Shown piece after piece: positions 134-12,444 of a stretch of DNA of 40,000 nucleotides; the stretch's first letter is position 1; each line of letters starts with the position of its first letter. The DNA comes from Metallibacterium scheffleri. Lineage in GTDB: Bacteria; Pseudomonadota; Gammaproteobacteria; Xanthomonadales; Rhodanobacteraceae. The notes below the pieces were generated by a model that was given only the letters and a program-made list of their open reading frames with translations, was not told where the DNA came from and made no database searches. The stretch is taken from the NCBI RefSeq assembly GCF_002077135.1, contig NZ_LDOS01000002.1, positions 1,411,865 through 1,451,864 on the forward strand, given 5' to 3'. A program made the translations under genes and the position numbers.

Positions 134-1204
134 TTCGCGGCCCATGCCGAGCGCTACCTCGACGAGCTGGCGAGGGCGCTGCGCAGTGACACGTACCGGC
201 CCCAAGCGATCAGGCGGGTCGAGATTCCCAAAGGGCGGGGCCAAACCCGTCCACTGGGGATACCGACGGTGAAGGATCGCGTGGTGCAAACGGCGGTACG
301 GCTGGTGATTGAGCCGATCTTCGAGTCGCTCTTTTGCGCACACAGCTACGGGTTTCGGCCCGGCCGCGGTGCCAAGCGTGCGCTGCGGGAGGTGGATGCA
401 CTGCTGCGGGCGGGGTATTGCCATGTGGTGGATGCCGACCTTGCCGGCTACTTTGACAGCATTCCGCACGCCGGTCTGATGGCGCGGGTGCGCGAGCAGA
501 TCGCGGATGGCCGCGTACTGCGCTTGCTGGAATCGTGGCTCAAGCAGGAAGTGATGGCGGGACTGGAACGCTGGATCCCCACGGGCGGTACGCCGCAGGG
601 TGCGGTGATCAGTCCGCTGTTGTCCAATATCTACCTGCATGGGCTCGACGAGACGATGGCCGCAGGCGGCTATCGGATGGTGCGTTATGCCGATGACTTC
701 GTGGTGCTGTGTCAGACCGCGGATGAGGCGCAACGTGCGCTGGCCGAGATTGGCACGTGGGTGGACGCCCACGAGCTGACCTTGCACCCGGACAAGACCC
801 ACGTCGGCGACTGCCGACAGGTAGGCCGCGGGTTCGAGTTTCTGGGCTATCGGTTCGAGGCCGGTCAACGCCGGGTACGCACGAAGAGCTGGAACGCGAT
901 GCTGGACAAAATTCGACAGCACACGCCGCGTACCAAGGGGCGTTCGCTGGCGAGCATCATCAGCCAGATCAACCCGATGCTGCGGGGCTGGTACCAGTAC
1001 TTCAGGCATGCCCACCGGATCACTTTCAGCAAGCTCGACGGGTTTATCCGCCGGCGTCTGCGCTCTATCCTTCGTGCATACGAGGGTCGGCGTGGGCACG
1101 GTCACACCCGCGAGGACCATCAGCGCTGGCCCAATAGCTACTTCGCTCAGCAGGGGCTTTTCACGTTAACCCAAGCCCATGCCTTGGCGTGCCGATCTCG
1201 ATGA
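134..1204 (+). pseudogene. Group II intron reverse transcriptase/maturase, N-terminally truncated
   Basis: From [12 protein letters not shown] onward the ORF 74..1204 matches the 443-aa RT at 26846..28177, including YADDFVV and the maturase RGWYQYF. The first ~20 codons of the ORF are unrelated junction sequence. Confidence 0.85.
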
Positions 1205-1221
1205 AGCAACCACCCACTGGA

Positions 1222-1254
1222 GAGCCGTGTGCGGGAGAACCGCACGCACGGTTC
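1222..1254 (+). ncRNA. Group II intron domain V (catalytic hairpin) of the truncated copy
   Basis: GAGCCGTGTGCGG-GAGA-ACCGCACGCACGGTTC: AGC triad, GNRA loop and bulged 3' arm, matching the domain V consensus. Confidence 0.8.
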
Positions 1255-1295
1255 GGAGGGCGGGGAGGTGATGAGCCTTCCCGACCCCTATCAGC

Positions 1296-1550: not shown

Positions 1551-2750
1551 TCACCCCACGCAGCCGCTCAACACCGCTTCGAAGCGATCGGTGATCGCGG
1601 CCAGATCGAAGGTGCGCTCGGCGTAGGCGCGCGCGCGCGCGGCCATGGCCTGGCGCGCGGCGTGGTCGGTACGCAGCGTGCGCGCGGCGGCGATGAAGGC
1701 CGCCGCGTCGCGCGGCTCGGCCACCAGGCCGGTCCCCTGGTCGCGGACGATGCGCGCGGCGAGGTTATCGGCCGGCACCGCCAGCAGCATCGCGCGCCCG
1801 GCGCAGTGATAGCTCAGCACCTTGGACGGCACCGAATACACGCCGGCATCGGGTTCGAGGATGCTCACCAGCACATCGGCGCTGGCCAGCACATCGGACA
1901 TCGCCTCGTAGGGCTGAAACGGATTCACGCGCAGGTTGCGCAGCCCCGCCGCCGCGGCCTGCGCGCGCAGCCAATCGGCCGGCGCGCCCTGCGAATTGAC
2001 CACCACTTCCACATCGTGGTCATCGGCAAAGGCCTTGGCCAGCGCCAGCAGCAGATCGGGATTGTGCTTGAAGCCCAGCGTGCCCGAATACAGAAACACC
2101 AGCTTGCGCTCCAGCCCCGCCGCCTGCGCCCACAGGTTGTCCTTGGCGCGCGGACGCACCTCATCCAGCGGCGCCCAGTTGGGGATGGTGGTGTAGCGCG
2201 CCGCAGCCACGCCGGCCGCCAGCACCGGCGCGCGGAAATCCTCGGTGATGCCCACCACCGCCGCGCTGCGCGCCAGCAGTCCCGCTTCCACGCGCTTGTA
2301 GTGCGCGCCCACCAGCGCGCCCAGCACCGGCAGGCGTTTGCGCAACACGCGATCGGTGGCCTCGGCCACCAGATCCTGCAGCCAGAACACCCAGGGAATA
2401 CCCTGCGCATGGCACGCCGCATCCAGCGCGCGCACCGCATCCAGCGGCGCGTTGGCGCACATCACCACGTCCGGTTTCAGCGCGACGATGCGCCGTGCCA
2501 GCAAGCGCCCATACAAGCGCTCCAGCCGCCAGCGCCGCACGAACGCGCGCTTGTCCACCGGCCGCGGCAGCGCGATGCCCTCGATCAGCAACTCATCCGG
2601 ATCATCGCCGCGCCGCGCCAGACCGCCCTTGGGCGTGGTCGGATTGGAGGCGTTGTAGAGCAGCGTCACGCGGTGCCCGCGCCGCGCCAGCGAACGCGCC
2701 AGTTGCGCGATGAAGGCGTGACCGCCGTAGTCATGAACCAGCACGTGCAT
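1551..2750 (-). CDS. GT4-family glycosyltransferase, WcaI/WbuB-like
   Basis: Start taken at MHVLVHDYGGHAFIAQLARSL (ATG at 2750). GT-B fold motifs, including SVPSKVLSYHCAGRAML. The upstream 66 codons of the ORF are REP-derived. Confidence 0.8.
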   Translation of the reverse strand: MHVLVHDYGGHAFIAQLARSLARRGHRVTLLYNASNPTTPKGGLARRGDDPDELLIEGIALPRPVDKRAFVRRWRLERLYGRLLARRIVALKPDVVMCANAPLDAVRALDAACHAQGIPWVFWLQDLVAEATDRVLRKRLPVLGALVGAHYKRVEAGLLARSAAVVGITEDFRAPVLAAGVAAARYTTIPNWAPLDEVRPRAKDNLWAQAAGLERKLVFLYSGTLGFKHNPDLLLALAKAFADDHDVEVVVNSQGAPADWLRAQAAAAGLRNLRVNPFQPYEAMSDVLASADVLVSILEPDAGVYSVPSKVLSYHCAGRAMLLAVPADNLAARIVRDQGTGLVAEPRDAAAFIAAARTLRTDHAARQAMAARARAYAERTFDLAAITDRFEAVLSGCVG

Positions 2751-2904
2751 TCCACTCTCCGCTGTGCAATGAGCCGCAAGCATAACCGCGCAAGCACAAG
2801 GCTTGGCGTGATTGCCAGGCACGCCCCGTTGCCATCTGACCCGCCCTGGCATGCCAGACGCAGCGAAGCAACTTCCCCACGCAAACCTTCCCGCGCTCCT
2901 ACTT

Positions 2905-2930
2905 GTCATCCTGAGCACAGCGAAGGATCT
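2905..2930 (+). repeat. REP element (GTCATCCTGAGCNCAGCGAAGGATC type)
   Basis: Same ~26-nt motif recurs more than 15 times in the window. It yields spurious 'ILRCAQDDK/SAAKDL' ORF segments. Confidence 0.75.
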
Positions 2931-2944
2931 TCCCCGCGACCACC

Positions 2945-3242
2945 TCACCTCCCGAACAAAAAATCCGCCTGCACCGCGCGGCCGTCGCGATCGTTCGCCA
3001 TGTTGTACACACGGATCAGCCGCAACCCGCGCGCGCGCAGCCCGGCGATCACCTCATTCGCCAGCGCCTGGCCCGCGTACAGCTCGACAAACGAGCATTC
3101 GCCGTACACCCACGCGAACGCGTCCAGCAAGGTTTCGCAACCGCGCAGCGCCTGCAGTTCGTAGCTCTGCACGTCCAGCTTGAGCGGCGCCGGCGCGGCA
3201 ATGTCCGCGCGCTGAGCACGTCGTCCAGCCGGCGCACCTCGA
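2945..3242 (-). pseudogene. 3' fragment of an FkbM-family methyltransferase gene (junction copy J5, frameshifted)
   Basis: Encodes ...DIAAPAPLKLDVQSYELQALRGCETLLDAFAWVYGECSFVELYAGQALANEVIAGLRARGLRLIRVYNMANDRDGRAVQADFLFGR, homologous to the C-terminus of the intact gene 11686..12444. A 1-nt deletion lies near EVRRLDDVL. Confidence 0.8.
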
Positions 3243-3258
3243 TCGCGGCGCGGCGTGC

Positions 3259-3540
3259 TCAGGCTGCTTCCCGTACGCGCATTTCCACGCGCAGACCGGC
3301 CGCCGCCGCCATGTTGACCAGCGCATCGAGGCCGAACAGGTTGATCTTGCCGCGCATCAGGTCGGAGACGCGCGGCTGCGTCACGCCGAACAGCCTGGCG
3401 GCCTGCGCCTGGCTCATTTCGGTGCGGGTGATGTGCTTCTTGAGCGCCATCATCAGCGCGGAACGCAGCTTCATATTCTCGACCTCGGCCGGCGTATCCT
3501 CGATCGCATCCCACACGCTGGCATGTCGTTGCTTGCTCAT
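3259..3540 (-). CDS. XRE-family HTH antitoxin (HigA-like)
   Basis: 93 aa with HTH MSQAQAARLFGVTQPRVSDLMRGK. ATGA overlap with the upstream toxin gene. Confidence 0.8.
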   Translation of the reverse strand: MSKQRHASVWDAIEDTPAEVENMKLRSALMMALKKHITRTEMSQAQAARLFGVTQPRVSDLMRGKINLFGLDALVNMAAAAGLRVEMRVREAA

Positions 3541-3875
3541 GGTCCCAACTCCTTCTGCAATTCACGGTAGCGCTTGGCGACCAAGTCCAGATCCATCTTG
3601 CGGGTCTTTTCTGTCTTCTTCTGGAAGCAATGCAGCACATAGACGACATCGACCCACTTCGCCACGTAAATGATGCGGAACGCGCCGGCGGCGTCCCGTA
3701 TCCGAATCTCTTTCACACCCTTGCCAATGCTCGCCATCGGCTTCCAGTCGTCAGGCTCCTGACCGTGTTGCACCTGGTCGAGCTGATGGCCTGCCTCGCG
3801 CCGGGCCGCCAATGGAAAGGCGCGCAAGTCGTCGAGGGAGCTGCCGCGGAAATCGACAGGTTTGGGGCCGGGCAT
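3537..3875 (-). CDS. RelE/HigB-superfamily toxin, phage Gp49-like
   Basis: MPGPKPVDFRGSSLDDLRAFP...AFRIIYVAKWVDVVYVLHCFQKKTEKT is the typical Gp49/COG4679 pattern. Start chosen at the ATG at 3875. Confidence 0.75.
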   Translation of the reverse strand: MPGPKPVDFRGSSLDDLRAFPLAARREAGHQLDQVQHGQEPDDWKPMASIGKGVKEIRIRDAAGAFRIIYVAKWVDVVYVLHCFQKKTEKTRKMDLDLVAKRYRELQKELGP

Positions 3876-3884
3876 GCGGCAAAT

Positions 3885-3900
3885 ATACAAAATATTGTAT
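3885..3900. promoter_or_regulatory. Candidate operator palindrome ATACAA-N4-TTGTAT in the AT-rich toxin-antitoxin promoter
   Basis: 6-bp inverted repeat 10 nt upstream of the toxin ATG, in the only AT-rich patch locally. Confidence 0.3.
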
Positions 3901-4020
3901 TGACCAGCAACCGGTGCAAACGATGGCTCGAACCGGGTCAAGCCCTACCTTGCTGAGCGCGGCGAAGAATCTCGGTATTGCTCTCGTGCCCGCACCACCT
4001 GCGCCGTGCTGCATCCAGTC

Positions 4021-4095
4021 TGCGCGCGTCGTCAAGACGACGCGCCGCGCATCCTGGTCATCGATATCGGCAACCGACGTAAAGTCTACCGATGA
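4021..4095 (+). pseudogene. 3' remnant of a RelE/ParE-family toxin gene
   Basis: Reads ...QDDAPRILVIDIGNRRKVYR*, a typical RelE C-terminus, with no upstream gene body. It is part of the 88-bp repeat shared with 7700..7787. Confidence 0.5.
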
Positions 4096-4164
4096 GCGCC
4101 GAGAAACGCGGCGTGGCCACACCGGCACCCCGAATTGCTTGGGGAGTTGGTGTGTTGGCCTAGG

Positions 4165-4312
4165 AGCCTGTCGGACTTTCAGAAAACCGCCAAATTGTGG
4201 CCAGGAATTGATCAAAATGGTCGGCGTGGGTCGCCTCAAATTGAGTTCGAGTGTTCGTGTTGCAACAGAATCATCGACGTACGAGGCGCATCTCATCAAA
4301 GTCCGACAGGCT
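4165..4312. repeat. 15-bp perfect inverted repeat (AGCCTGTCGGACTTT / AAAGTCCGACAGGCT) flanking a 118-bp lower-GC spacer
   Basis: Read directly from the sequence at 4165..4179 and 4298..4312. Confidence 0.6.
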
Positions 4313-4359
4313 GCTAGCGCGGATTTGACCCCACCCGGATGCACTTTTAAAGTAAGAAA

Positions 4360-4375
4360 GTAAGGATTGCCTTAC
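4360..4375. promoter_or_regulatory. Candidate operator GTAAGG-N4-CCTTAC immediately upstream of the mazE-like SD
   Basis: Inverted repeat followed by GGAGG and the ATG at 4390. Confidence 0.3.
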
Positions 4376-4389
4376 CGGAGGCTCTCGCC

Positions 4390-4620
4390 ATGCGCGCCAT
4401 CGCCAAAATCACCGCCAAAGGTCAAACCACGATCCCGCAAGACGTTCGCGCCGCACTGCACGTCGCCCCTGGCGATCTGATCGCGTGGGAAGTCCGCGCC
4501 GATGGCACCGCGACGGTGCGCCGGGTGCAGCCGCTGGACATCGATTATCTGCGCGCCGTCGAGGGCACGCTCTCCGAATGGCACAGCCCTGCGGACGAAG
4601 AGGCCTACCGTGGGCTTTGA
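4390..4620 (+). CDS. AbrB/MazE/SpoVT-family antitoxin
   Basis: MRAIAKITAKGQTTIPQDVRAAL is a swapped-hairpin AbrB-type motif. SD GGAGG lies upstream. Confidence 0.8.
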   Translation: MRAIAKITAKGQTTIPQDVRAALHVAPGDLIAWEVRADGTATVRRVQPLDIDYLRAVEGTLSEWHSPADEEAYRGL

Positions 4621-4954
4621 GCGCTACGCCGTCGTGCGCGTGCCCTTTCCGTTCACCGATCGCAATGCCAGCAAGAACCGCCCGGCGCTGGTGCTCTCGG
4701 ATGACGCTGCGTTCAATACCCCTGCGGGCCATTCGGTGATGGCGATGATCACCACCGCCGCAAATCCACCCTGGCCACTGGACTGCCCGATCACCGATAT
4801 GGCCGCCGCGGGCCTGCCGTCGGTTTCGCTGGTGCGGTTCAAGCTGTTCACGCTGGATCATCGGCTTGTCCGTGGCGTCTTGGGTACGCTGGCCACCGCC
4901 GACGCGGATGCTGTGCGCATGCACATGCTGCGGTTGTTCGCCTGCGCGCCATAG
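4610..4954 (+). CDS. MazF/PemK-family toxin
   Basis: GTG at 4610 overlaps the antitoxin stop. VRVPFPFTDRNASKNRPALVLS...VRFKLFTLD is characteristic of PemK-like proteins. Confidence 0.75.
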   Translation: MGFERYAVVRVPFPFTDRNASKNRPALVLSDDAAFNTPAGHSVMAMITTAANPPWPLDCPITDMAAAGLPSVSLVRFKLFTLDHRLVRGVLGTLATADADAVRMHMLRLFACAP

Positions 4955-4964
4955 GCGGCGCCGA

Positions 4965-5126
4965 TCAAGCACACGCTGGCGATGGTGCGCATCCTGCATG
5001 CGCCCGCACCGCACGATCAGATGCGTGTTCGAGACCACAATCGGCGACATGTTCCGCGACATGGCCACGATCCGCCAGCAGGCGCGCCAACGCTGGCGGA
5101 AGCTGTGCATCCAGCAGAAAGCGCAT
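4965..5126 (-). pseudogene. DUF5615 (PIN-like) toxin homologue, truncated after ~40 conserved codons
   Basis: My own translation gives MRFLLDAQLPPALARLLADRGHVAEHVADCGLEHASDR..., the canonical DUF5615 N-terminus, with a TGATG overlap to the DUF433 gene. It stops at 53 aa, just before the convergent mazF-like 3' end. Confidence 0.55.
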
Positions 5127-5350
5127 CAAGCAGCCCGCAGCACGGGGTGGTCGCTCTGCATGGCGGCAAACTCAAGCGCTGCCGTGATGTCAGCCGGCTC
5201 CAGGTAGGGGTAATCAGCCAGGATCTCTTCGCGGCTGGCGCCGCTGGCCAGCAGATCAAGCACGTCTTTCACCCGCAGCCGCAAGCCACGAATGCACGGA
5301 CGGCCCCCGAGCTGTTCGGAATTCACGGTGATCCGATGTAGCTCACTCAT
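5126..5350 (-). CDS. DUF433-family protein (antitoxin-like partner of DUF5615)
   Basis: MSELHRITVNSEQLGGRPCIRGLRLRVKDVLDLLASGASREEILADYPYLEPADITAAL matches the DUF433 signature. Confidence 0.75.
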   Translation of the reverse strand: MSELHRITVNSEQLGGRPCIRGLRLRVKDVLDLLASGASREEILADYPYLEPADITAALEFAAMQSDHPVLRAA

Positions 5351-5456
5351 GGCAATGCTCCTGATCAAGGCTGCACGACTGATCCGTGCTGTGTGCTCCA
5401 GCGGCGCTTGCGCGGACAAGCACCGGCCCGTGCGCGCTGCGGCAACCCGCAACGCC

Positions 5457-5600
5457 GAGATCCTTCGGGCAATGCCCTCAGGATGACAACGGAAAAGTGA
5501 CAACGAAAACCTTTGTCATTCTGAGCGCAGCGAAGAATCTTCCCCGCACACACCTTCCCGCTCTTTGTCATTCCGGGCGCAGCGAAGAATCTTCCCCACG
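5457..5600. repeat. Composite REP (BIME-like) cluster
   Basis: GAGATCCTTCGGGCAATGCCCTCAGGATGAC (inverted REP) + GGAAAAGTGACAACGAAAACCTTT linker + GTCATTCTGAGCGCAGCGAAGAATC, then another REP. The same composite recurs at ~9975..10058 and ~11625..11708. Confidence 0.75.
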
Positions 5601-5606
5601 ACCACT

Positions 5607-5900
5607 TCACCGCCCAAACAAAAAATCCGCCTGCACCGCGCGGCCGGCATGGTCGAAGGCCATGTTGTACGCGCCCAGCAACCCGAACCCGCGCTCGCGC
5701 AGCCAGGCGATCACCTCGACCGCGGCGTGGCCGGCCTCCTGCGTACCTGGGAAGATCCGCGTCTGCTCGCTGCCGATCGGCAGCAGCGACGACGAGTCGT
5801 CGCGCGCCGACACATGCATCGACGCCATGCCGGCGCGCTCGCCCACCGCGCAGGCATGCAGGGTCACGCGGGCATTACGTGCAAACACGCGGCGAAACAC
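5607..5900 (-). pseudogene. FkbM methyltransferase gene fragment with internal deletion (junction copy J4)
   Basis: ...HVSARDDSSSLLPIGSEQTRIFPGTQEAGHAAVE is joined directly to VIAWLRERGFGLLGAYNMAFDHAGRAVQADFLFGR. About 50 codons present in the intact gene are missing. Confidence 0.8.
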
Positions 5901-5909
5901 CGCGGCAAC

Positions 5910-6317
5910 TCAGGCAGCCCGCACTTCGGCCAGTAAGTCCGGATGACGCTCAAGCACTTTCAAGAGTTTCACCAGTGCCAGAGGTGGCTTGGTCTTGCCG
6001 TTTTCATAACGGGAGAAGGCATTGACACCGCCGCCGAAAATCTCGGCCGCCTCTTGCTGGTCGAGGCGCAGCTTCTTGCGCACGCTGGCGATGAAGTCCG
6101 GATTGACCATCGCGGCGTTCACCTGTTTGTTGAATGCCAACATCAGGCTCATCGTGCGGCGAGATTCAGCCACATCCAGAATCGACTCATCACAGGCAGG
6201 ACAAAAGTCGCCCGTCACTTGGGTAAGCACGGTCGACTCGCCCTTGTAGGTGTAGGGCACATCGCGGGTGTCGTGCACCAGCTTTTCCGCTCCGCAAATC
6301 GGGCACTTCATGGTCAT
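5910..6317 (-). CDS. mqsA: MqsA-family antitoxin (Zn-ribbon + XRE HTH)
   Basis: MKCPICGAEKLVHDTRDVPYTYKGE...GDFCPACDESI, followed by an HTH domain. Overlaps the mqsR-like stop. Confidence 0.85.
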   Translation of the reverse strand: MTMKCPICGAEKLVHDTRDVPYTYKGESTVLTQVTGDFCPACDESILDVAESRRTMSLMLAFNKQVNAAMVNPDFIASVRKKLRLDQQEAAEIFGGGVNAFSRYENGKTKPPLALVKLLKVLERHPDLLAEVRAA

Positions 6318-6610
6318 AGCTCCTTGAAAGACACGATGAGCACGTCATCAATCACCATCAGCTTGAGATACATCTCGCCGGCCGACGTCGTTGGGCGGTA
6401 AACGTCCTGCCACACCCGATGATCCGCGTGGGTTGTCATGCTCTTGTGGAAGTCGGCGGTGGTCAGCGCCAGAACCACGGCAAGCATGCCGTCGAAATCG
6501 AACCCCAACGCCGCGCCACCTTCGCGGGCAGCCCTTGTCGTGCGCACCTGGCCTGCACGGGCCAAGGCCTTCACGACGGCCAGCTTGCAGTGAGGTGTGC
6601 CTTTCTCCAT
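6314..6610 (-). CDS. mqsR: MqsR-family mRNA interferase toxin
   Basis: 98 aa; MEKGTPHCKLAVVKALARAGQVRTT...YLKLMVIDDVLIVSFKEL resembles MqsR. Toxin-first gene order as in mqsRA. Confidence 0.8.
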   Translation of the reverse strand: MEKGTPHCKLAVVKALARAGQVRTTRAAREGGAALGFDFDGMLAVVLALTTADFHKSMTTHADHRVWQDVYRPTTSAGEMYLKLMVIDDVLIVSFKEL

Positions 6611-6619
6611 GGCGAAATT

Positions 6620-6634
6620 TAACCTAGTAGGTTA
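6620..6634. promoter_or_regulatory. MqsA-type operator palindrome TAACCT-AGT-AGGTTA
   Basis: Lies 10 nt upstream of the mqsR-like ATG. Matches the established MqsA recognition palindrome ACCT-N(2-4)-AGGT. Confidence 0.6.
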
Positions 6635-6714
6635 CTTCTAGCAAGGGCCAGCGTGCTGTAGAGGGGGATACGCCCCGGCTCGCTGTCACACCCCGGCTTG
6701 CGGACACATTGCCG

Positions 6715-6870
6715 GCCTGCGGTCGTCACCGGGCGGCGGCAGCGAAGCATCTTCCCCGCACACACCTTCCCGCTCTTTGTCATTCTGAGCGCAGCGAAGA
6801 ATCTTCCCCGCGACCACCTCCCCGCCCCTTCTTGTCATCCTGAGCGCAGCGAAGGATCTTCCACCCGACC
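6715..6870 (+). repeat. REP cluster (three to four GTCATYCTGAGCGCAGCGAAGRATC-type units)
   Basis: Read directly from the sequence. Produces the spurious ORFs 6686..6877 and 6780..7025. Confidence 0.7.
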
Positions 6871-6877
6871 ACCTCAC

Positions 6878-6935
6878 CTCCCAAACAAGGAATCCGCCTG
6901 CACCGCGCGGCCATCGCGGTCATTCGCCATGTCTG
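6878..6935 (-). pseudogene. Very short 3'-end remnant of the FkbM methyltransferase gene (junction copy J3)
   Basis: CCAAACAAGGAATCCGCCTGCACCGCGCGGCCATCGCGGTCATTCGCCATGT aligns with the last ~17 codons (..MANDRDGRAVQAD.LFGR*) of the other copies. Confidence 0.65.
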
Positions 6936-7133
6936 GCAACCGCAGACAACCGCATCCGCATCAGTCCCGCCGCGCCAAAGGGTTCCGAGCGCAGCGAAGC
7001 ATCCCGCACGTGTTCTCGCGCCCATTGTCCGAGCGCGAATGCGGTTATACGGAAGTGGCTGAAGGTGGATGTCTTGCGCGAATCAGACCGGCTGCGGCGG
7101 CGCTCGGGCCAGGTGCTGGCTGCGGCTTGCGCT

Positions 7134-7409
7134 TCACGGGTACTCGCGGTGCGCGTGCAGAACGCCGATGATCTCGATTTGGTCGGCCAGAACCCGGTAG
7201 ATCACGATGTAATTCGGGTGCACGACCAGCTCACGCGTGCCGGCGACTCGGCCGGCGCGGTACAGATAGGGGTGCTCCGACAGCGGCAACACGGACGCCT
7301 CGATGAGGGCTTGCAGTTCTTCGGCGGCAGCCGGATTGAACAGCGCAATGTAGGCCGCGATCGCGTCCAGTTCATCGAGCGCCTTGGCACTCCAGCGAAG
7401 GGGCAGCAT
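7134..7409 (-). CDS. ParE/RelE-family toxin
   Basis: MLPLRWSAKALDELDAIAAYI...YRAGRVAGTRELVVHPNYIVIYRVLADQIEIIGVLHAHREYP is a typical ParE fold signature. Confidence 0.8.
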   Translation of the reverse strand: MLPLRWSAKALDELDAIAAYIALFNPAAAEELQALIEASVLPLSEHPYLYRAGRVAGTRELVVHPNYIVIYRVLADQIEIIGVLHAHREYP

Positions 7410-7603
7410 TACGCCGGCTTCTGTTGCTTGCGCCTCGCCGCCTCGATGGTCGCTCGGACGCGCGCCATCGCTTCATCGTGCGGCACGCTAGGCCGCGGGT
7501 CATCGAGCGCGGCTTGCACCTGGGCACGCAACCAGCGGTCATAGCTGGTCGCTTGCTCATCGGTCTCGAACTCGGAAATCAGCGGGTCAAGGCGTGTGTT
7601 CAT
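7409..7603 (-). CDS. Putative cognate antitoxin of the ParE/RelE toxin
   Basis: 64-aa acidic protein directly upstream, overlapping the toxin start by 1 nt. Family not recognised from sequence alone. Confidence 0.55.
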   Translation of the reverse strand: MNTRLDPLISEFETDEQATSYDRWLRAQVQAALDDPRPSVPHDEAMARVRATIEAARRKQQKPA

Positions 7604-7673
7604 GGTCGCAGTTTACCACTTGGTTTGTTGTTCGGCCGGCTCTGGCAGGTCGAGCGGGGTCTGATCGGCCTGA

Positions 7674-7763
7674 TTCCATTATCGAATCCTCTGCGACATT
7701 CAAGACGACGCGCTGCGCATCCTGGTCATCGATATCGGCAACTGACGTGAAGTCTACCGATGA
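7674..7763 (+). pseudogene. 3' remnant of a RelE/ParE-family toxin gene (second copy, with internal stop)
   Basis: FHYRILCDIQDDALRILVIDIGN*REVYR*. Contains the 88-bp repeat 7700..7787 shared with 4032..4119 (4 mismatches). Confidence 0.5.
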
Positions 7764-7885
7764 GCGCCGAGAAGCGCGGCGTGGCCAGGAAGTACGGGCG
7801 CTGACCCGCTTTCACGGGTGACGACGGTCAGCCCGTGCACCAGGGCGGTGGCGGCGATCAGGGCATCGCGATCCGCCCGCGGCGC
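7754..7885 (-). pseudogene. C-terminal remnant of a PIN-domain (VapC-like) toxin gene
   Basis: ...DRDALIAATALVHGLTVVTRE is the conserved C-terminal PIN motif, with no N-terminal part. Confidence 0.4.
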
Positions 7886-7976
7886 TGCGCTAAATACGGG
7901 CTCTGACCCGCTTCGCGGAACGGCTGAGCGCCTTGCAGTAAGCTCTCCTTGTTTCCTTACCTGGTGAGGGCGAGCC

Positions 7977-8201
7977 ATGCTTGCCAAGAAGACGGTCAAG
8001 AACCAGATCACGCTGCCCAAGGCGGTCGTCGGCCGCTTTGCGGGCGTGGATTACTTCGAGGTCTCCACCGACGGCACCGCCATCGTGCTCAAGCCGCTGC
8101 GGCGCAGCCGCGCCGACGAAGTACGCGCCAAGCTGTCCAGGCTGGGCGTGCGCACGGCCGATGTGCCCGCCGCGGTGAAGTGGGCGCGCAAGGCGCGCTG
8201 A
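7977..8201 (+). CDS. AbrB/SpoVT-type antitoxin (VapB-like)
   Basis: MLAKKTVKNQITLPKAVVGRFAGVDYFEV is an AbrB-like looped-hinge motif. Immediately precedes the PIN gene. Confidence 0.7.
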   Translation: MLAKKTVKNQITLPKAVVGRFAGVDYFEVSTDGTAIVLKPLRRSRADEVRAKLSRLGVRTADVPAAVKWARKAR

Positions 8202-8202
8202 C

Positions 8203-8613
8203 GTGCGCGTCGTGTTCGACACCGGCACGGTGGTCTCGGCGCTGCTGTTTACCCATGGACAACTGGCGTGGCTGCGCACGCATTGGGCGAGCGGCGACTG
8301 CACGCCGCTGCTGAGCGCCGCCACGGCCGCGGAACTGACGCGGGTGCTGGCTTACCCCAAATTCAAGCTCAGCGCGGACGAGCAGCACGAACTACTGGGC
8401 GACTACCTGCCCTTTGCCGAGATCGTGGCCCGCCCGCGGCGCTGCCCGGTCATCTGCCGTGACCCAGCCGACCAGCCCTTTCTGGACCTGGCGCATAGCA
8501 GCGGCGCGACGGTCCTGGTCAGCGGCGATGCCGATCTGTCGAGCTTGGCCGGACAAACGGCTTTCGACATCGAATCACCCGCTGCCTATCGGCAACGCGT
8601 GCTGGGGCGCTGA
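8203..8613 (+). CDS. PIN-domain toxin (TIGR00305-like)
   Basis: GTG start 1 nt after the antitoxin stop. VVFDTGTVVSALLF...DPADQPFLDLAHSSGATVLVSGDADL carries the PIN acidic residues. Confidence 0.7.
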   Translation: MRVVFDTGTVVSALLFTHGQLAWLRTHWASGDCTPLLSAATAAELTRVLAYPKFKLSADEQHELLGDYLPFAEIVARPRRCPVICRDPADQPFLDLAHSSGATVLVSGDADLSSLAGQTAFDIESPAAYRQRVLGR

Positions 8614-8699
8614 GGGCGCCAAGGGCGTCGCGACATGGCCATCACGCGCCGGCAAGGCCATGGACCTGCTGCGTGCAGGATCGGCGCCGTTCGTCGAGC

Positions 8700-8835
8700 G
8701 TGAGATCCCGAGCGCAGCACATCCGGCTGAGCGCAGCGAGGATCCTGGCTCCGCGATCGACAGATCCTTCGGGCTGCACCCTCAGGATGGCAACGGAAAC
8801 CTTTGTCATTCTGAGCGCAGCGAAGGATCTTCCAC
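8700..8835. repeat. REP cluster
   Basis: Includes AGATCCTTCGGGCTGCACCCTCAGGATGGC and GTCATTCTGAGCGCAGCGAAGGATC. Confidence 0.7.
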
Positions 8836-8844
8836 CCGACCACC

Positions 8845-9000
8845 TCACCTTCCAAACAAAAAATCCGCCTGCACCGCGCGGCCATCGCGATCGTTCGCCA
8901 TGTTGTACACGCCGATCAGCCGCAGACCACGCTCGCGCAGCCAGGCAATCACCTCATCCGCCAGCGCCTGGCCCGCGTACAGCGCCACGAACGAGCATTC
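8845..9000 (-). pseudogene. 3' fragment of the FkbM methyltransferase gene (junction copy J2)
   Basis: ECSFVALYAGQALADEVIAWLRERGLRLIGVYNMANDRDGRAVQADFLFGR*. Confidence 0.8.
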
Positions 9001-9113
9001 CGACCAGTCAATCAGGTTCCCGGCCTGCATCTGCAATGACCCCGGACTGCGCTCTGCTGCATCCAGGCCGCGCTCGTTGCACAAACCTATGCCAGGAAGT
9101 GCATAATTCGGCC

Positions 9114-9431
9114 ATGAAGCCGATCGTGTGGGTGGGTAGCAGCAAGGATGATCTCCGGCGCTTTCCTGCGTCCGCGCGCAGCCAGTCGGGTTTCCAACTC
9201 GATAAGGTGCAGCGGGGCGAAGATCCGGACGACTGGAAGCCGATGCCGACCATCGGACCTGGAGTGCGGGAAATCCGCATCCGTGAGGTGGCCGGAGCCT
9301 TCCGCGTCATCTACGTCGCACAGATCGGCCAAGCGCTGCATGTACTCCACTGCTTCCGGAAAAAGACCGAGCGGACTTCGCTCAAGGATCTGCAACTGGC
9401 ACGGCAACGGCTCAGAGAGGTGATGCCATGA
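9114..9431 (+). CDS. RelE/HigB-superfamily toxin, Gp49-like (second, divergent copy)
   Basis: MKPIVWVGSSKDDLRRFPASARSQSGFQLDKVQRGEDPDDWKPMPTIGPGVREIRIREVAGAFRVIYVA... is a paralogue of 3537..3875. Only the last 105 codons of ORF 8673..9431 are genuine. Confidence 0.8.
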   Translation: MKPIVWVGSSKDDLRRFPASARSQSGFQLDKVQRGEDPDDWKPMPTIGPGVREIRIREVAGAFRVIYVAQIGQALHVLHCFRKKTERTSLKDLQLARQRLREVMP

Positions 9432-9862
9432 AGACGACCAACGGAAGTCCCCAAGGGACGACCAACGCGACCAAAGGGAGTCCCTTTTCGGGACGACCGA
9501 AGGAAGTTCAGAGGAGAAGTCCCCAAGGGACGACCTGCCGAAGCCCGCAAGGCGAGGCCAAGTCCAGGAACCGGCCCGGGCAAGCCGGGTTGACCAAGGG
9601 CGATGCGCGCGGCGTGTTCTACGACCTGTTCTCCGCGGAGCAGGCCGCGGAGCTTGCCATGCGTGCCACCCTGCTGCGCGGCCTGCAAGCTTGGCTCGCG
9701 GCAAGCGGCATCACCCAGACCCGGGCCGCGGCCACGCTGGGGACCACCCAGGCACGCATCAGTGACATCAAGCGCGGCAGGATCGAGCGCTTCAGCCTCG
9801 ATCTGCTGGTGCGACTCGCCGGGCGTGCGGGACTGCGGCCCGAAGTGCGACTGGCGGCCTAG
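9428..9862 (+). CDS. XRE-family antitoxin with a repeat-built N-terminal extension
   Basis: ATGA overlap with the toxin stop. The C-terminal 85 aa (VFYDLFSAEQAAEL...TQARISDIKRGRIERFSLDLLVRLA) is HigA-like. The N-terminal ~55 aa is encoded by three 20-22-nt hairpin repeats. An in-frame TTG at 9590 is an alternative start. Confidence 0.7.
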   Translation: MKTTNGSPQGTTNATKGSPFSGRPKEVQRRSPQGTTCRSPQGEAKSRNRPGQAGLTKGDARGVFYDLFSAEQAAELAMRATLLRGLQAWLAASGITQTRAAATLGTTQARISDIKRGRIERFSLDLLVRLAGRAGLRPEVRLAA

Positions 9863-9894
9863 ACAACGGCGCCTGGCGGCTCTGCATTCGGGTG

Positions 9895-10062
9895 ACTCGG
9901 AAGAATCTTCCCCCATCCCTTCGTGTCATCCTGAGCGCAGCGAAGAATCCCGCGCTTCGGCAAACCACCACGCCGAGATCCTTCGGGCAATGCCCTCAGG
10001 ATGACAACAGAAAAGTGACAACGAAAACCTTTGTCATTCTGAGCGCAGCGAAGAATCTCGCG
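9895..10062. repeat. Composite REP (BIME-like) cluster
   Basis: Same inverted-REP/linker/REP unit as at 5457..5540 and 11625..11708. Confidence 0.75.
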
Positions 10063-10065
10063 CCG

Positions 10066-10185
10066 CAGCACATCCTCCAACCGACGCACCTCGACCTCGG
10101 CGCGGCCGGCTTCCTGCGTGTCGGGGGAGATCCGCGTCTGCTCGCTCCCGATCGGCAGCAGCGAGAACGAGTCGTCGCGCGCACT
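10066..10185 (-). pseudogene. Internal fragment of the FkbM methyltransferase gene (junction copy J1)
   Basis: SARDDSFSLLPIGSEQTRISPDTQEAGRAEVEVRRLEDVL aligns with the middle of the intact gene. It is cut off by REPs. Confidence 0.7.
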
Positions 10186-10319
10186 CCCTTTGTCATTCCA
10201 CCAGGATTCACGCCAGCAGTTCCGCGCCCAAAGCCGCGTCCACCACTTGTTCAAATCAAGGAGAAGGTCTTCAGTCGCCCGCGCGCGGCGCTCTTGCGCG
10301 CGTCGAGTGCACTGCGCGG

Positions 10320-10559
10320 TTATGCGACGTTCTGCATCTTGTTCGCAAAGTCACGGCCCGACGTCGGTGGTGGAAGAGCCTTCCCGTCCTGGCGGTAGAG
10401 CGCAACGGCTTCCTCGACAACTTGACAAAGCTGCTCAAAGACGGCCTTTTCGTCCGTACCGTGGCACCCGCCGTAAATCAGCCCCGGAGAACTCCCGACA
10501 AAGCACTGGTCCTCCTCGGACCACTCGACGATCTTCGCGTATCGCGCGGTATCTTTCAT
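10320..10559 (-). CDS. hicB: HicB-family antitoxin
   Basis: MKDTARYAKIVEWSEEDQCFVGSSPGLIYGGCHGTDEKAVFEQL is a HicB N-terminal fold signature. Overlaps the hicA stop. Confidence 0.8.
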   Translation of the reverse strand: MKDTARYAKIVEWSEEDQCFVGSSPGLIYGGCHGTDEKAVFEQLCQVVEEAVALYRQDGKALPPPTSGRDFANKMQNVA

Positions 10560-10753
10560 GATTTTGACTCCTCAACGGCGCGCTTCACTGCGCGTACCTG
10601 ATAGTGCTTCGCGTCGTCGCCAAGCGCACCAGATATTGCGATGGGTTTGGCAACCTTCGGGTGGACAAAGTTTCGGTGACTTCCCTTGCTGCTGCGGTCG
10701 ACGAAGCCCGCTCGCTCAAGGTCGCCCACAAGCTCTCTTATTTTCGGCGGCAC
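10556..10753 (-). CDS. hicA: HicA-family mRNA interferase toxin
   Basis: MPPKIRELVGDLERAGFVDRSSKGSHRNFVHP is the canonical HicA motif. Confidence 0.85.
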   Translation of the reverse strand: MPPKIRELVGDLERAGFVDRSSKGSHRNFVHPKVAKPIAISGALGDDAKHYQVRAVKRAVEESKS

Positions 10754-10839
10754 TCAGTCACCCTTCACGGTTCAGTCGCACACGCCCGAAGTAAGCGGCG
10801 CAACCCGCGCAGCGGGCTTGCGTCCGCTTGACCGAGTTG

Positions 10840-11115
10840 TTAACCAACAGCCCGCCTTGACTTGGGCGCTGACCTTTCAAGAACCTCGACCATGCGAGTT
10901 TGCCAGCCAGGCCCTGTGGACCTCCAGCGTGCAATAACCTTGGGAGGCAACCGCAAGGACAGTAGCTGACGTGGATTTGCGAGCTTCGGACGCCCGCGCC
11001 GCACCAGCTTTTCACCCTGATACAAGTCGGCCTCGGAAATCCAAGCGTCCGTGATCTCGGGCGGGATCTCCGCATCATGTGAGATAGGGTTGGAGTTTTT
11101 TCGCTTCGCGCTCAT
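10840..11115 (-). CDS. brnA: BrnA-family antitoxin
   Basis: ...RRGRPKLANPRQLLSLRLPPKVIARWRSTGPGWQTRM is the BrnA/DUF4415-type C-terminus. Overlaps the brnT 3' end. Confidence 0.75.
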   Translation of the reverse strand: MSAKRKNSNPISHDAEIPPEITDAWISEADLYQGEKLVRRGRPKLANPRQLLSLRLPPKVIARWRSTGPGWQTRMVEVLERSAPKSRRAVG

Positions 11116-11347
11116 GACAATGCCTCATACTGATGATGCGTCTTGCGACGCCGCGCGGCGTCCATGCGAACACGACAAGCCGAGAATCGAGCCAACCCGC
11201 AGTGATGAAGCGAGGCTCGCCGTAGTCTTGGCGATCATCTGCACGTGTGAAGTGCGGCCCGGCAAAGGCCTCCTTGGCTCTGCGCATGTCCAAGCCGCGC
11301 TCCTGCAGCGTCCATTCGCGTTTTGCAGGGCGGCAGGTGATCCGCAT
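11075..11347 (-). CDS. brnT: BrnT-family ribonuclease toxin (DUF497)
   Basis: ...WTLQERGLDMRRAKEAFAGPHFTRADDRQDYGEPRFITAGWLDSRLVVFAWTPRGVARRIISMRHCHEREAK fits the DUF497 pattern. Confidence 0.75.
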   Translation of the reverse strand: MRITCRPAKREWTLQERGLDMRRAKEAFAGPHFTRADDRQDYGEPRFITAGWLDSRLVVFAWTPRGVARRIISMRHCHEREAKKLQPYLT

Positions 11348-11439
11348 GGACTAATTGTAGCTACAGAAAATGATGCTGTCAACAAAGTTGCGACCACGTT
11401 GAACCAGTTGACTAACAAGAAGTAGACGCTGCATCCGGG

Positions 11440-11570
11440 GTGTTGCACAAGATCGTCCGCCAGGCACGATGGTGCGTCAAGGCGGCTTCCCATGTCGCTC
11501 TTGAGCACGCGGCAGCCGCGCTCGATGTCAGACAGCGTCTTGTAGCTTGGCGTAACGAGTCGCCGCGCGC
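11440..11570 (-). pseudogene. Possible degraded remnant of an IS4/IS1634-type transposase C-terminus
   Basis: YKTLSDIERGCRVLKSDMGSRLD... resembles the conserved ..ERxFRxLKSxL..RP.. block. Short and degenerate. Confidence 0.25.
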
Positions 11571-11574
11571 GCCA

Positions 11575-11712
11575 CCCTTGTCATGAGCGCAGCGAAGATT
11601 CTCGCGCTGCGGCAACCCACCACGCCGAGATCCTTCGGGCCATGCCCTCAGGATGACAATAGAAAAGTGACAACGAAAACCTTTGTCATTCCGAGCGAAG
11701 CAAAGAATCTCG
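11575..11712. repeat. Composite REP (BIME-like) cluster directly downstream of the intact methyltransferase gene
   Basis: Same unit as the junction copies. The intact gene's stop codon lies inside the first REP. Confidence 0.75.
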
Positions 11713-12444
11713 CTCTTGCTCTTGCTCCCGCCTCCCGAACAAGAAATCCGCCTGCACCGCGCGGCCGGCATGGTCGAAGGCCATGTTGTACGCGCCCAGC
11801 AACCCGAACCCGCGTTCGCGCAGCCAGGCGATCACTTCATCCGCCAGTGCCTGCCCTTCGTAAAGCTCGACAAACGAGCATTCGCAGTACACCCATGCGA
11901 ACGCATCCAGCAGGGTTTCGCAGCCGCGCAGCGCTTGCAGCTCGTAGCCCTGCACGTCGAGCTTGAGCAGCGCCGGCGCGGCGATATCCGCGCGCTGCAA
12001 CACATCCTCCAGCCTGCGCATCTCGATGTGGGCGATCGCGACCTCCGCCGTGCCCGGGAAAATCCGGTCCTGCTCGCTACCGATCGGCAGCAGCGAGGAG
12101 GAATCATCACGCGCCGATACGTGGATCGGCGCCTTGCCCGACGTGCTCGCGACCGCATAAGGATGCAACCGCACCCGGCCATCGCCGGCAAACACCTTGC
12201 TAAAAATCGCCGCCGGCGCCGGCAATGGCTCGAACGAGTCGATGCGCGCATCCGGAAAAACGTGGCGCGCCGCCAGCGCAAACTGGCCGCGGTTGGCCCC
12301 GATGTCCACCACCGCGCGGCAACCATTAAATTGCCGCAGAACCACCGCATGCTCCACGCCCGCCACCACGCGATGGCGTCGCAGCGCTGCGCGCCAATCG
12401 GCCACCCGCAGAATGCGCAACAACTTTGCAGCCTTGGCGGTCAT
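11686..12444 (-). CDS. FkbM-family SAM-dependent methyltransferase (the intact copy)
   Basis: ATG at 12444 forms an ATGA overlap with the upstream GT stop. VVDIGANRGQFALAA (SAM motif) and ...KLDVQGYELQALRGCE are the FkbM signature. Confidence 0.8.
   Translation of the reverse strand: MTAKAAKLLRILRVADWRAALRRHRVVAGVEHAVVLRQFNGCRAVVDIGANRGQFALAARHVFPDARIDSFEPLPAPAAIFSKVFAGDGRVRLHPYAVASTSGKAPIHVSARDDSSSLLPIGSEQDRIFPGTAEVAIAHIEMRRLEDVLQRADIAAPALLKLDVQGYELQALRGCETLLDAFAWVYCECSFVELYEGQALADEVIAWLRERGFGLLGAYNMAFDHAGRAVQADFLFGRREQEQERDSLLRSE

Follow-up and report, generated by a model that had tools for sequence, protein, structure and literature searches.

The 40-kb window analyzed here, from Metallibacterium scheffleri DSM 24874, contains an interval (2945-11712) bounded by two polysaccharide genes: an intact FkbM-type methyltransferase (MT) gene at 11686-12444 (-) and a gene for a WcaI-like GT4 glycosyltransferase at 1551-2762 (-). 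The MT has 252 aa (Pfam Methyltransf_21, E 1.5e-19) and anchors the array, whereas the GT4 protein, with Pfam Glyco_transf_4 and Glycos_transf_1 domains, marks its distal flank. Between them we found nine type II toxin-antitoxin (TA) modules from eight families. The first-pass annotation had reported this content, together with punctuation of the modules by fragments of the MT 3' part and REP clusters, and this observation was confirmed.

Starting from the MT-proximal end, Pfam searches identified BrnT/BrnA at 10840-11347 (-) and HicA/HicB at 10320-10753 (-), of which HicB has no Pfam hit and is assigned by position and sequence only. These are followed by a HigB-like/XRE pair (Gp49/HTH_37) on the opposite strand at 9112-9862 (+), an AbrB-like/PIN_3 pair at 7977-8613 (+; PIN_3 E 1.7e-16), PaaA2/ParE at 7134-7603 (-), and MqsR/MqsA at 5910-6610 (-; E 2.7e-34 and 1.4e-62). 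The distal part comprises DUF433/DUF5615 at 4965-5350 (-), with a toxin truncated to 54 aa, a MazEF-like PrlF/MazE-PemK pair at 4390-4954 (+), and a second Gp49/HTH_37 pair at 3259-3875 (-), which is 79.5% identical at the nucleotide level to Cupriavidus metallidurans plasmids. In addition, remnants occupy 7680-7900: a weak hit to a PIN C-terminal fragment at about 7754-7900 on the minus strand, and a relE-like 3' end at 7680-7787 on the plus strand, which is repeated at 4032-4121 (95% identical) and whose translation, by our reading, ends in RILVIDIGNRRKVYR before the stop codon. The transposase remnants proposed in the first-pass annotation found no Pfam support inside the interval.

An nhmmer profile of MT genes placed five 5'-truncated MT fragments (J units), all on the minus strand, within a few bases of the positions annotated before. 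J1 lies at 10182-10054 (aa 111-153, E 2e-15), extends to about aa 160 by alignment, and is joined by an internal deletion to its REP cluster, REP1 (9885-10061). J2 lies at 9003-8850 (aa 187-237, E 6e-43) and is followed by REP2 (8728-8848). J3 at 6932-6879 (aa 220-237, E 1e-8) is 94% identical to MT 11731-11766 and is followed by REP3 (6729-6877). J4 (5611-5916) is a chimera of J4a, 5916-5729 (aa 74-136, reaching about aa 143; E 7e-31), and J4b, 5722-5611 (aa 201-237, E 5e-28), joined at the microhomology GAGGTG and followed by REP4 (5433-5610). J5 at 3249-2950 (aa 138-237, with the start possibly at aa 131; E 3e-74) is followed by REP5 (2850-2945) directly upstream of the GT gene and forms the conserved distal end of the array. 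J2 to J5 end at the natural MT stop and are followed by the REP cluster. Three J units start exactly at the stop codon of the preceding antitoxin gene; the MqsA stop codon abuts J4, and the XRE stop codon abuts J5.

The REP clusters are REPIN-like. REP0 (11400-11730, -) directly follows the intact MT, whose last 14 codons run into it; it matches the other REP clusters in a blastn self-comparison, contains a REP core at 11685-11709, and folds as a hairpin (z -2.5). The 25-nt REP core occurs 11 times in the window compared to 0 expected. Nine of these copies are located at the J/MT junctions, all on the minus strand.

Comparison with related loci

In order to assess whether the array varies, we compared it with related loci (designated L followed by a number). 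The close relative L023 has the same flanks, with a downstream GT that is 99.3% identical (block 3561-1556, including J5) and an MT that is 93.6% identical, with the differences concentrated at nt 361-540 in a mosaic pattern. L023 carries the same cassettes in another order, plus unique ones, and lacks BrnTA, with block boundaries in the J/REP units. The HicAB block is 97% identical to L023 5301-6156 at a different array position, and the proximal Gp49/HTH_37 cassette is 99.6% identical to L023 3216-4508, where it sits directly after the MT. Window J2 is a hybrid of two J-REP copies present in L023 that share about 270 nt of homology. The DUF5615 toxin is full length in L023, while MazF is partly deleted and the toxin of the distal Gp49 module is deleted there. 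The single-cassette indels (BrnTA, the Gp49 toxin) have no J or REP at their ends, and the BrnTA indel is clean, with only about 6 nt of imperfect microhomology.

Further arrangements were found in the metagenome contigs L077/78, L024, and L059. The AbrB-like/PIN_3 cassette is absent from this position in L077/L078, the relE-like remnant recurs in L023, L024, and L077/78, and an identical ParE protein is encoded on four other contigs in different contexts. L059 carries the uninterrupted J (aa 74 to at least 200) after MqsA. Cassettes homologous to DUF433/DUF5615 occur in L002, L006, and L018, and the cargo of the arrays elsewhere also consists of TA modules.

The architecture of intact MT, TA cassettes, MT 3' fragments, and a GT4 gene recurs in 10 of 12 loci whose MT is at least 64% identical, but in 0 of 13 loci with an MT of at most 63% identity, so that it occurs in one MT clade only. 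A homologous GT4 gene ends the arrays in L002, L003, L006, and L023. In L031 (MT 67% identical), the MT is followed after about 100 nt by the GT4 gene, which represents the empty site. In L030, a duplicated target spanning the MT/GT4 junction flanks a Phd/PIN module, and in L003, L018, and L057 a cassette is inserted cleanly into a J copy at aa 96. The same cassette plus J unit occurs at different array positions in these three loci.

Overall, cassettes are 94-97% identical between arrays whose MT genes are only 82-88% identical. Specifically, cassettes of L018 are 95.8-96.9% identical to those of L006 (MT 84.7%), 95.9% to those of L028 (MT 82%), and 95.5% to those of L003 (MT 88%). We also found that the J units are not decayed copies of the present neighboring gene, as the first-pass annotation had assumed, but belong to other MT alleles, foreign or older, which fall into two C-terminal classes. 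J2 belongs to the class LRLIGVYNMANDRDGR and is 90% identical to the L001 MT. J4a is 85.5% identical to the L001 MT but only 73.9% to the resident MT, whereas J4b is 94% identical to the resident MT. The J of L003 is 96% identical to the intact MT of L006. All J units of the window share their orientation and, except J1, their 3' boundary, whereas 5' boundaries vary from aa 62 to aa 220, as homology-driven insertion predicts and site-specific insertion does not.

No integrase domain was detected in any ORF of at least 180 aa within the 40-kb window, nor in the gene table of the 20 kb of L023. Searches for attC core pairs and for a dif/pdif core gave no hit either.

Inferred mode of array growth

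The first-pass annotation had interpreted the layout as the product of repeated Campbell-type integration of circular molecules at the MT 3' end or of serial homology-facilitated insertion, resembling an integron cassette array without integrase or attC. This interpretation is supported by our data: the points it had set as tests, namely array polymorphism, an empty site, the alignment of the J units, and the searches for a recombinase and attC, came out in its favor, as did the search for dif. We therefore favor, with moderate confidence, an integrase-independent, integron-like gene-capture site that grew at the 3' end of an EPS-operon methyltransferase gene by serial homology-driven insertion and is now reshuffled by homologous recombination between its own linkers. 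The architecture, its recurrence and polymorphism, the exchange of cassettes, the allele differences, the position of the breakpoints, and the absence of nearby integrase, attC, and dif sites are evident from the sequences. In contrast, the recombination itself, its RecA dependence, the form of the incoming DNA, the direction of growth, and the addiction ratchet are inferred.

In this model, DNA from a relative carrying MT'-REP'-cassette would recombine with the resident locus through a left crossover that is homologous, in or upstream of the MT. The right joint would be either illegitimate, at microhomology inside the resident MT 3' part, or homologous, between a donor J and the resident MT 3' part; a Campbell-type single crossover of a circle carrying such a segment would give the same product. 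The MT gene would be restored with a donor 3' end next to the new cassette, and the former 3' end displaced downstream as a 5'-truncated J with its REP cluster. Repetition would give MT-REP-cassette-J-REP-cassette-J...GT4. As dispersed direct repeats, the J and REP copies would provide portable homology for RecA-type recombination, which would delete, duplicate, transpose, and exchange cassettes within and between genomes, and J pseudogenes would also serve as neutral landing pads for new cassettes. Cargo flanked by direct repeats is easily looped out; TA modules would resist loss by post-segregational killing and might thus be what remains.

Growth at the MT-proximal end is suggested by L018, which has an extra proximal VapBC unit followed by a displaced GT-MT copy relative to its close relative L003, and by the proximal cassettes, which differ between the window and L023 while the distal end is 99.3% identical. 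However, there is no clear identity gradient along the array that would date the cassettes. Several cassettes are adjacent with no J between them, which, together with the single-cassette indels, indicates that illegitimate events also contribute. The J4a|J4b joint likewise looks like homology-facilitated illegitimate recombination (HFIR) rather than the integration of a circle. Some J 5' boundaries recur, at about aa 74 in five contexts and at aa 200-220 in about ten. We attribute these, and the starts at antitoxin stop codons, to shared descent and deletional trimming, although a preferred site is not excluded.

Related systems and alternative readings

Among the closest parallels is the insertion of restriction-modification (addiction) gene units with long target duplication (Nobusato et al. 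2000; Furuta, Abe & Kobayashi 2010, PMC2853133). There too, comparison of related genomes revealed a small post-segregational-killing module inserted without transposase or integrase and flanked by long direct repeats of the target that vary in length (46-420 bp there; about 35-530 bp here) and often overlap the 3' end of the neighboring gene. L030 shows exactly this pattern around its Phd/PIN module. Those cases, however, are single insertions at scattered loci, whereas here the cargo is type II TA modules, the same target gene is hit repeatedly to give arrays of up to nine or more cassettes, the duplicated target copies are different alleles, and the architecture is conserved across a whole clade of MT genes in several bacterial lineages.

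Chromosomal integrons and CALINs (attC clusters lacking an integrase) share the one-sided, TA-rich array of small, mostly promoter-bearing cassettes next to a fixed anchor, with repeated linkers and cassettes that are shared and reordered between strains. They differ in that no intI lies nearby here and no attC R''/R' cores were found, the linkers are fragments of a protein-coding gene plus REPs with variable boundaries, cassettes lie in both orientations, and the implied recombination is homologous or illegitimate rather than site-specific. In HFIR and in the exchange of minimal mobile elements between conserved flanking genes of naturally transformable bacteria, foreign DNA is integrated without a mobility gene through one homologous anchor plus a microhomology joint, or by flanking homology, which fits the GAGGTG joint and the conserved MT/GT4 flanks. 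Yet HFIR is known from laboratory single events and minimal mobile elements are allelic replacements, and neither has been described as building multi-cassette arrays that retain a fossil series of displaced gene ends. Finally, in the tandem accretion of genomic islands at tRNA/tmRNA or protein-gene 3' ends, and in Xer-dependent modules (IMEX, Acinetobacter pdif modules), successive insertions restore the target 3' end and leave displaced copies as direct repeats, and pdif modules also carry TA pairs without their own recombinase. Those systems use a site-specific recombinase with a fixed crossover site and constant repeat length, in contrast to the variable boundaries and the lack of a nearby integrase or dif-like core here.

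Among the alternatives, a site-specific system acting in trans appears unlikely but survives best. An unlinked tyrosine or serine recombinase, a REP-associated HUH transposase (RAYT), or host Xer might recognize the MT 3' end or the REPIN hairpin as an att-like site, as IntI does with attC, and insert and excise cassettes. The units keep the last roughly 60-110 nt of the MT plus an imperfect REP hairpin, many independent short J units start at aa 200-220, the junctional REP cores share one orientation, starts at a stop codon are frequent among attC sites, and our recombinase searches cover only the 40 kb here and the 20 kb of L023, not the rest of the genome. However, 5' boundaries are widely scattered, and some J units lack the 3' end altogether (J1; L018 aa 96-167). 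The L018 lineage uses a different REP family at the same junctions, so no conserved site sequence exists beyond coding conservation. Moreover, cassettes lie in both orientations, several without J or REP between them, breakpoints between relatives fall at different places in J or REP, and neither an attC core, a dif core, nor a recombinase was found in the sequence searched.

A local tandem duplication of the MT 3' end, REP, and neighboring DNA, followed by decay and occasional unrelated TA insertions into an essentially static island in which the J units play no part in cassette traffic, is very unlikely and already largely refuted. REP elements are known join points of tandem duplications, the J units are 71-94% identical to the resident gene, and L018 carries a duplicated GT-MT segment. 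Against this reading, order and content differ between strains that are 99% identical in the flank, cassettes are shared between genomes at higher identity than the MT, the J units belong to different MT alleles, some matching intact MT genes of other genomes, and the same cassette plus J unit changes position among L003, L018, and L057. An assembly artefact of collapsed or chimeric repeats can practically be dismissed, even though the region is repeat-rich and one public contig breaks at the adjacent group II intron, since 16,281 nt including the whole array are 100% identical in an independent NCBI contig (L076), Logan contigs from separate read sets (L075, L079) match at 99.9-100%, the J copies (71-94% identical to each other) are too different to be collapsed or mis-joined, and the same architecture appears in many unrelated assemblies.

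Composition of the array

The interval 2945-11712 lies between a GT4 glycosyltransferase gene (1551-2762, minus strand) and an FkbM-family methyltransferase gene (MT, 11686-12444, minus strand; Pfam Methyltransf_21). Both flanking genes belong to a 40-kb exopolysaccharide (EPS) cluster with further glycosyltransferases, a flippase, Wzy, Wzc, CpsB and a sugar transferase. A Pfam search confirmed nine predicted type II toxin-antitoxin (TA) modules from eight families, namely Gp49/HTH_37 (twice), PrlF-MazE/PemK, DUF433/DUF5615 with a toxin truncated to 54 aa, MqsRA, PaaA2/ParE, AbrB-like/PIN_3, HicAB, and BrnTA. Of the 18 proteins, 16 gave hits above the curated cut-off, while the AbrB-like protein (7977-8201) fell below it and HicB had no hit. 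Only TA genes and remnants lie between the MT and the GT, the remnants being a PIN C-terminal fragment and two copies of an 88-nt relE-like 3' end. The latter form an 88-108-nt repeat on the plus strand (4032-4121 and 7680-7787, 95% identical), whose translation ends 'RILVIDIGNRRKVYR*', a RelE/ParE-like C-terminus. The repeat recurs in L023, a 185-kb metagenome contig from a close relative (8523-8630 and 12815-12904), and in the short contigs L024 and L077/78 from other samples, and thus represents a third kind of recurrent linker or remnant in these arrays. The first-pass annotation had additionally listed transposase remnants, for which we found no evidence inside the interval.

In order to locate the junction (J) units that punctuate the array, we searched the window with a nucleotide profile of 23 MT genes. 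This search returned exactly five extra MT fragments, all on the MT strand and downstream of the intact gene: J1 at 10182-10054 (aa 111-153), J2 at 9003-8850 (aa 187-237), J3 at 6932-6879 (aa 220-237), J4 at 5916-5729 plus 5722-5611 (aa 74-136 and 201-237), and J5 at 3249-2950 (aa 138-237), with E-values from 1e-8 to 3e-74. J2-J5 end at the natural stop codon and continue into a REP cluster like the one after the intact gene, whereas J1 is fused to its REP by an internal deletion. The 25-nt REP core occurs 11 times in the window against 0 expected. Nine of these copies sit at the J/MT junctions in one orientation, and within this window 11 of 11 cores lie in the two TA arrays. REP doublets fold into REPIN-like hairpins (z -2.3 to -3.5). 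In a search against Rfam, only the domains of two group II introns reached the gathering score, and no known RNA family matched J or REP. The resident MT, like that of L023, has lost the ancestral stop codon kept by J2-J5 and reads 14 further codons into the REP element (11686-11730, '...RREQEQERDSLLRSE*'), while homologues end at 'ADFLFGR'. A second FkbM methyltransferase gene in the cluster (14961-15908, minus strand) is only about 25% identical to the anchor MT and has no fragments of its own anywhere in the window. Overall, the array reported by the first-pass annotation is real, and its coordinates and description were accurate.

The sequence 17409-1129 of the window is 100% identical to NCBI MWQO01000038.1, from the draft genome of Metallibacterium scheffleri DSM 24874, a gammaproteobacterium of the Lysobacterales (PMC7470346). 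Assemblies of independent read sets match at 99.9-100%, so the structure is not an assembly artefact.

Variation among relatives and recurrence in one clade of MT genes

L023 carries the same flanks, with a downstream GT that is 99.3% and an MT that is 93.6% identical at the nucleotide level. Between them, the shared cassettes are 97-99.6% identical, but their order differs. The Gp49/XRE-J2 block is MT-proximal in L023, while it follows HicAB-J1 in the window, and DUF433/DUF5615 sits elsewhere. BrnTA, the Gp49 toxin at 3537-3875 and part of MazF are found only in the window, whereas HigBA, an Xre_MbcA antitoxin and an extra J are found only in L023. Block boundaries fall in J or REP units, and J2 of the window is a recombinant of two J-REP copies of L023 that share about 270 nt. 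However, the single-cassette indels (BrnTA, the Gp49 toxin) have clean joints with 1-6 nt of microhomology and no target-site duplication. The short contigs add further arrangements: in L077/78 the ParE cassette lies directly after a J2-like unit without PIN/AbrB, in L024 MqsRA is followed by a J cut at aa 108 and then by other genes, and in L059 MqsA is followed by an uninterrupted J (aa 74 to at least 200). Further TA modules lie beyond the GT flank in L023 (Gp49/HTH and HigB plus partner, 15025-15650 and 17004-17662), and TA insertion in this EPS region is therefore not confined to the MT-GT interval.

Scans of species-representative genomes and of metagenomes gave 72 loci with MT homologues. 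Among loci with an intact MT at least 64% identical to the window protein and at least 600 nt of downstream sequence, 10 of 12 carry same-strand, 5'-truncated MT fragments downstream, with five in locus L018 and six in locus L060. None of 13 loci with an MT at most 63% identical does. The genes between the fragments are again TA modules (PIN, Unstab_antitox/ParE, HicAB, DUF433/DUF5615, RHH/ParE, Phd/ParE, Phd/PIN, RES/Xre, RelE/HTH, Gp49/HI1420, BrnT, PemK, and HigB), with occasional non-TA genes, i.e. an AAA_14/DUF4143 ATPase, Uma2, RNase_T and HNH. The distal flank is a WcaI-like GT4 in the loci L002, L003 and L006, in L023 and in the window, with arrays of about 2.8 to 10.5 kb. In locus L031, the MT is followed after about 100 nt by that GT4, which represents the empty site. 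The L018 lineage has a different REP family at the same junctions, so the REP sequence itself is not the conserved feature. In L018 (15724-15792) and L003 (about 11740-11830), a REP element of the 'GAAPTG' family is inserted inside a J copy at MT aa 167-174, and truncated J copies in L018 end at exactly this REP. REPs therefore invade the pseudogene copies and then become deletion end-points.

Shared cassettes are more similar between arrays than the MT genes next to them. Cassettes of L018 are 95.8-96.9% identical to those of L006 (MT 84.7%), 95.9% to those of locus L028 (MT 82.0%), and 95.5% to those of L003 (MT 88.2%). The antitoxin-ParE cassette occupies different positions in L003, L018 and the further locus L057. 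In all three it is inserted into a J copy at aa 96, with at most 5 nt lost and no duplication, and it is therefore flanked by MT homology on both sides. A 9-bp inverted repeat (GTTATGTTC / GAACATAAC) around this cassette looked transposon-like at first, but its right arm is 85 nt inside the cassette end and overlaps the ParE stop codon, while its left arm lies in a promoter palindrome. GC content does not mark the cassettes as foreign. In comparisons with plasmids and phages as possible vectors, only the Gp49/XRE module matched plasmids (79.5% to Cupriavidus metallidurans), and no phage matched.

Alleles and joints of the J units

The first-pass annotation had described the J units as decayed copies of the neighbouring MT gene. 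Our comparison shows instead that they belong to other alleles. Two C-terminal allele classes coexist in the window, 'FGLLGAYNMAFDHAGR' in the resident gene and J4b, and 'LRLIGVYNMANDRDGR' in J2, J3 and J5. J4a is 85.5% identical to the MT of locus L001 but 73.9% to the resident MT, and J2 is 90% identical to the L001 MT but about 71% to the resident MT, while the resident MT itself is 77.8% identical to that of L001. Similarly, the L003 J is 96% identical to the intact L006 MT in its last 112 nt but about 85% to its own MT. The MT genes of the window and of L023 differ mostly in nt 361-540, a mosaic pattern. We therefore infer that the MT 3' end has been replaced repeatedly, and that the J units are the displaced versions.

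J4 is a chimera in which J4a (foreign allele, up to aa 143) is joined at the microhomology GAGGTG to aa 201-237 of a resident-type MT, followed by its REP and by DUF433/DUF5615. The uninterrupted J is seen in L059. This is the product expected of homology-facilitated illegitimate recombination (HFIR), with a homologous crossover upstream and a microhomology joint inside the resident MT 3' part that leaves the remnant behind. J4a and J5 may be one J split with a 20-35 nt target duplication or two independent J units. In locus L030, a Phd/PIN module is flanked by a duplicated segment spanning MT aa 206 to GT4 aa 31, a pattern of insertion with long target duplication that a single crossover with a circle carrying that segment would also give. 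Relative to its close relative L003 (97.7% identical further upstream), L018 has an extra MT-proximal VapBC unit, which is followed by a displaced copy of the upstream GT 3' half fused to an MT fragment. Growth therefore appears to occur at the MT-proximal end. In L030 (3446-5694) and locus L052 (187-741), a 3'-truncated N-terminal MT fragment lies upstream of the intact MT. In L030, the one of the two inspected more closely, the fragment covers aa 1-165 and a HigBA module sits between it and the intact gene. This mirror image of the usual layout shows that the intact copy can be on either side of the insert.

Proposed mechanism and comparison with described systems

These data support the interpretation of the first-pass annotation, which had proposed an integron-like accretion without integrase or attC, by repeated Campbell-type integration of circular molecules at the MT 3' end or by serial homology-facilitated insertion. 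In this view, incoming DNA from relatives, whether circular or linear, would carry MT'-REP'-cassette, with the TA modules themselves coming from the plasmid pool. The left crossover would be homologous, and the right joint illegitimate or homologous within the resident MT 3' part, by HFIR or double homologous crossover. The MT would be restored and a displaced J left behind, and repetition would build the array. J and REP repeats would then mediate RecA-type deletion, duplication, transposition and inter-strain exchange. What the sequences show directly is the J4 joint, the location of breakpoints in J/REP, the hybrid J units, and the use of J pseudogenes as neutral landing pads for cassettes, while the remaining steps are inferred, as are the toxicity of the toxins and its neutralisation by the antitoxins. 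Only cargo that penalises its own loss would survive between direct repeats, which would explain the near-exclusive TA content. This is an inference by analogy with TA cassettes that limit deletions in superintegrons (Szekeres et al. 2007, cited in PMC2654758).

Several findings argue against a site-specific system. J 5' boundaries range from aa 62 to aa 220, and some J units lack the 3' end. Cassettes lie in both orientations, and some are adjacent without any linker. No Phage_integrase or recombinase domain was found in any ORF of at least 180 aa of the 40-kb window, nor in the genes called on 20.4 kb of L023. The only transposase-like ORF of the window (DDE_Tnp_1_6, 36563-38014) is 25 kb away, and the two group II introns lie outside the interval. 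A search for attC cores (R'' RYYYAAC and R' GTTRRRY) with 40-130 nt spacing in 2801-11800 gave zero pairs on either strand, against a mean of 0.6 in shuffles, and the core CATAA-N6-TTATG of the 28-bp XerC/XerD dif/pdif site had no match in the window with up to 1 mismatch. However, a recombinase or RAYT encoded elsewhere in the genome is not excluded. The recurrence of boundaries near aa 74 and aa 200-220 keeps this rival alive, although it is unlikely, as do three J units that start exactly at a stop codon (of MqsA, XRE and an L060 antitoxin). The latter suggested precise cassette ends, but across 14 junctions the spacing runs from 0 to 200 nt, which fits deletional trimming. An equally unlikely but more far-reaching possibility is that the J-REPIN units are not just passive homology but the recombination sites of a dedicated cassette system of a new kind, in which an unlinked enzyme, for example a REP-associated HUH transposase or an unknown recombinase, would act on the hairpin at the end of the MT gene. 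This would make the array an integron analogue, specialised for addiction modules, that locks a public-good EPS operon against deletion.

The closest description is the insertion with long target duplication of restriction-modification (RM) units (Furuta et al. 2010, PMC2853133). It shares an addiction cargo, the lack of any mobility gene in the insert, and long, variable direct repeats of the target that often include a gene's 3' end. In the window, these repeats are the J units of 54-300 nt, and they align with a single copy of the MT 3' part at the empty site of L031. It differs in that it describes single insertions, that the cargo is RM rather than type II TA modules, and that its repeats are near-identical copies of one target, whereas the repeats here are diverged (71-94% identical) and belong to different MT alleles. 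The array works like an integron or CALIN cassette array but shows none of the features examined: no intI was found near it and no attC core pairs lie between cassettes, and the cassettes are not co-oriented and mostly promoterless, since three of nine modules are on the opposite strand and all are autonomous TA operons. In layout it resembles tandem island accretion at tRNA genes and Xer-dependent pdif modules (IMEX), but it lacks a fixed site. Full-text literature searches found no paper describing TA arrays with gene-fragment linkers.

If correct, this interpretation would show that bacteria can build and maintain integron-like, multi-cassette arrays with nothing but general recombination, short relics of a target gene and the selfishness of the cargo. 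It offers a concrete explanation for how chromosomal TA 'islands' arise where no mobile element is visible, and it extends the long target duplication mode of addiction-gene mobility from single RM insertions to serial accretion. The array also provides a readable fossil record, in which each J is a former allele of the MT 3' end. As the architecture of an intact gene followed by same-strand, 5'-truncated copies of itself is simple to search for, other anchors could be found systematically.

The array lies inside an EPS operon that also holds a second TA array, which raises the testable idea that addiction modules may stabilise costly public-good loci. This second array (21600-30200, minus strand) is located between the flippase (19723-21111) and Wzy (30044-31564) and holds at least seven small nucleotidyltransferase (MNT-like) genes paired with HepT/HEPN-like partners, for example 22730-23044 (HepT-like, E 9e-24) and 23108-23533 (Polbeta, E 3e-19). 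It is punctuated by roughly 150-nt repeats, 89-92% identical, that are the 5' ends of the MNT genes, and it also contains two segmental duplications at 95-96% identity. No fragments of the flanking genes are present, so here the linker is part of the cargo itself. The two group II introns (74-1291, plus strand, and 26759-28177, minus strand) are near-identical and carry an RVT_1+GIIM reverse transcriptase, with the Rfam RF00029 domain at 1220-1291 and 26759-26830. One lies just beyond the GT flank of the first array, and the other lies inside the second array next to REP hairpins (26690-26714 and about 28715-28810), which suggests hairpin-targeted insertion.
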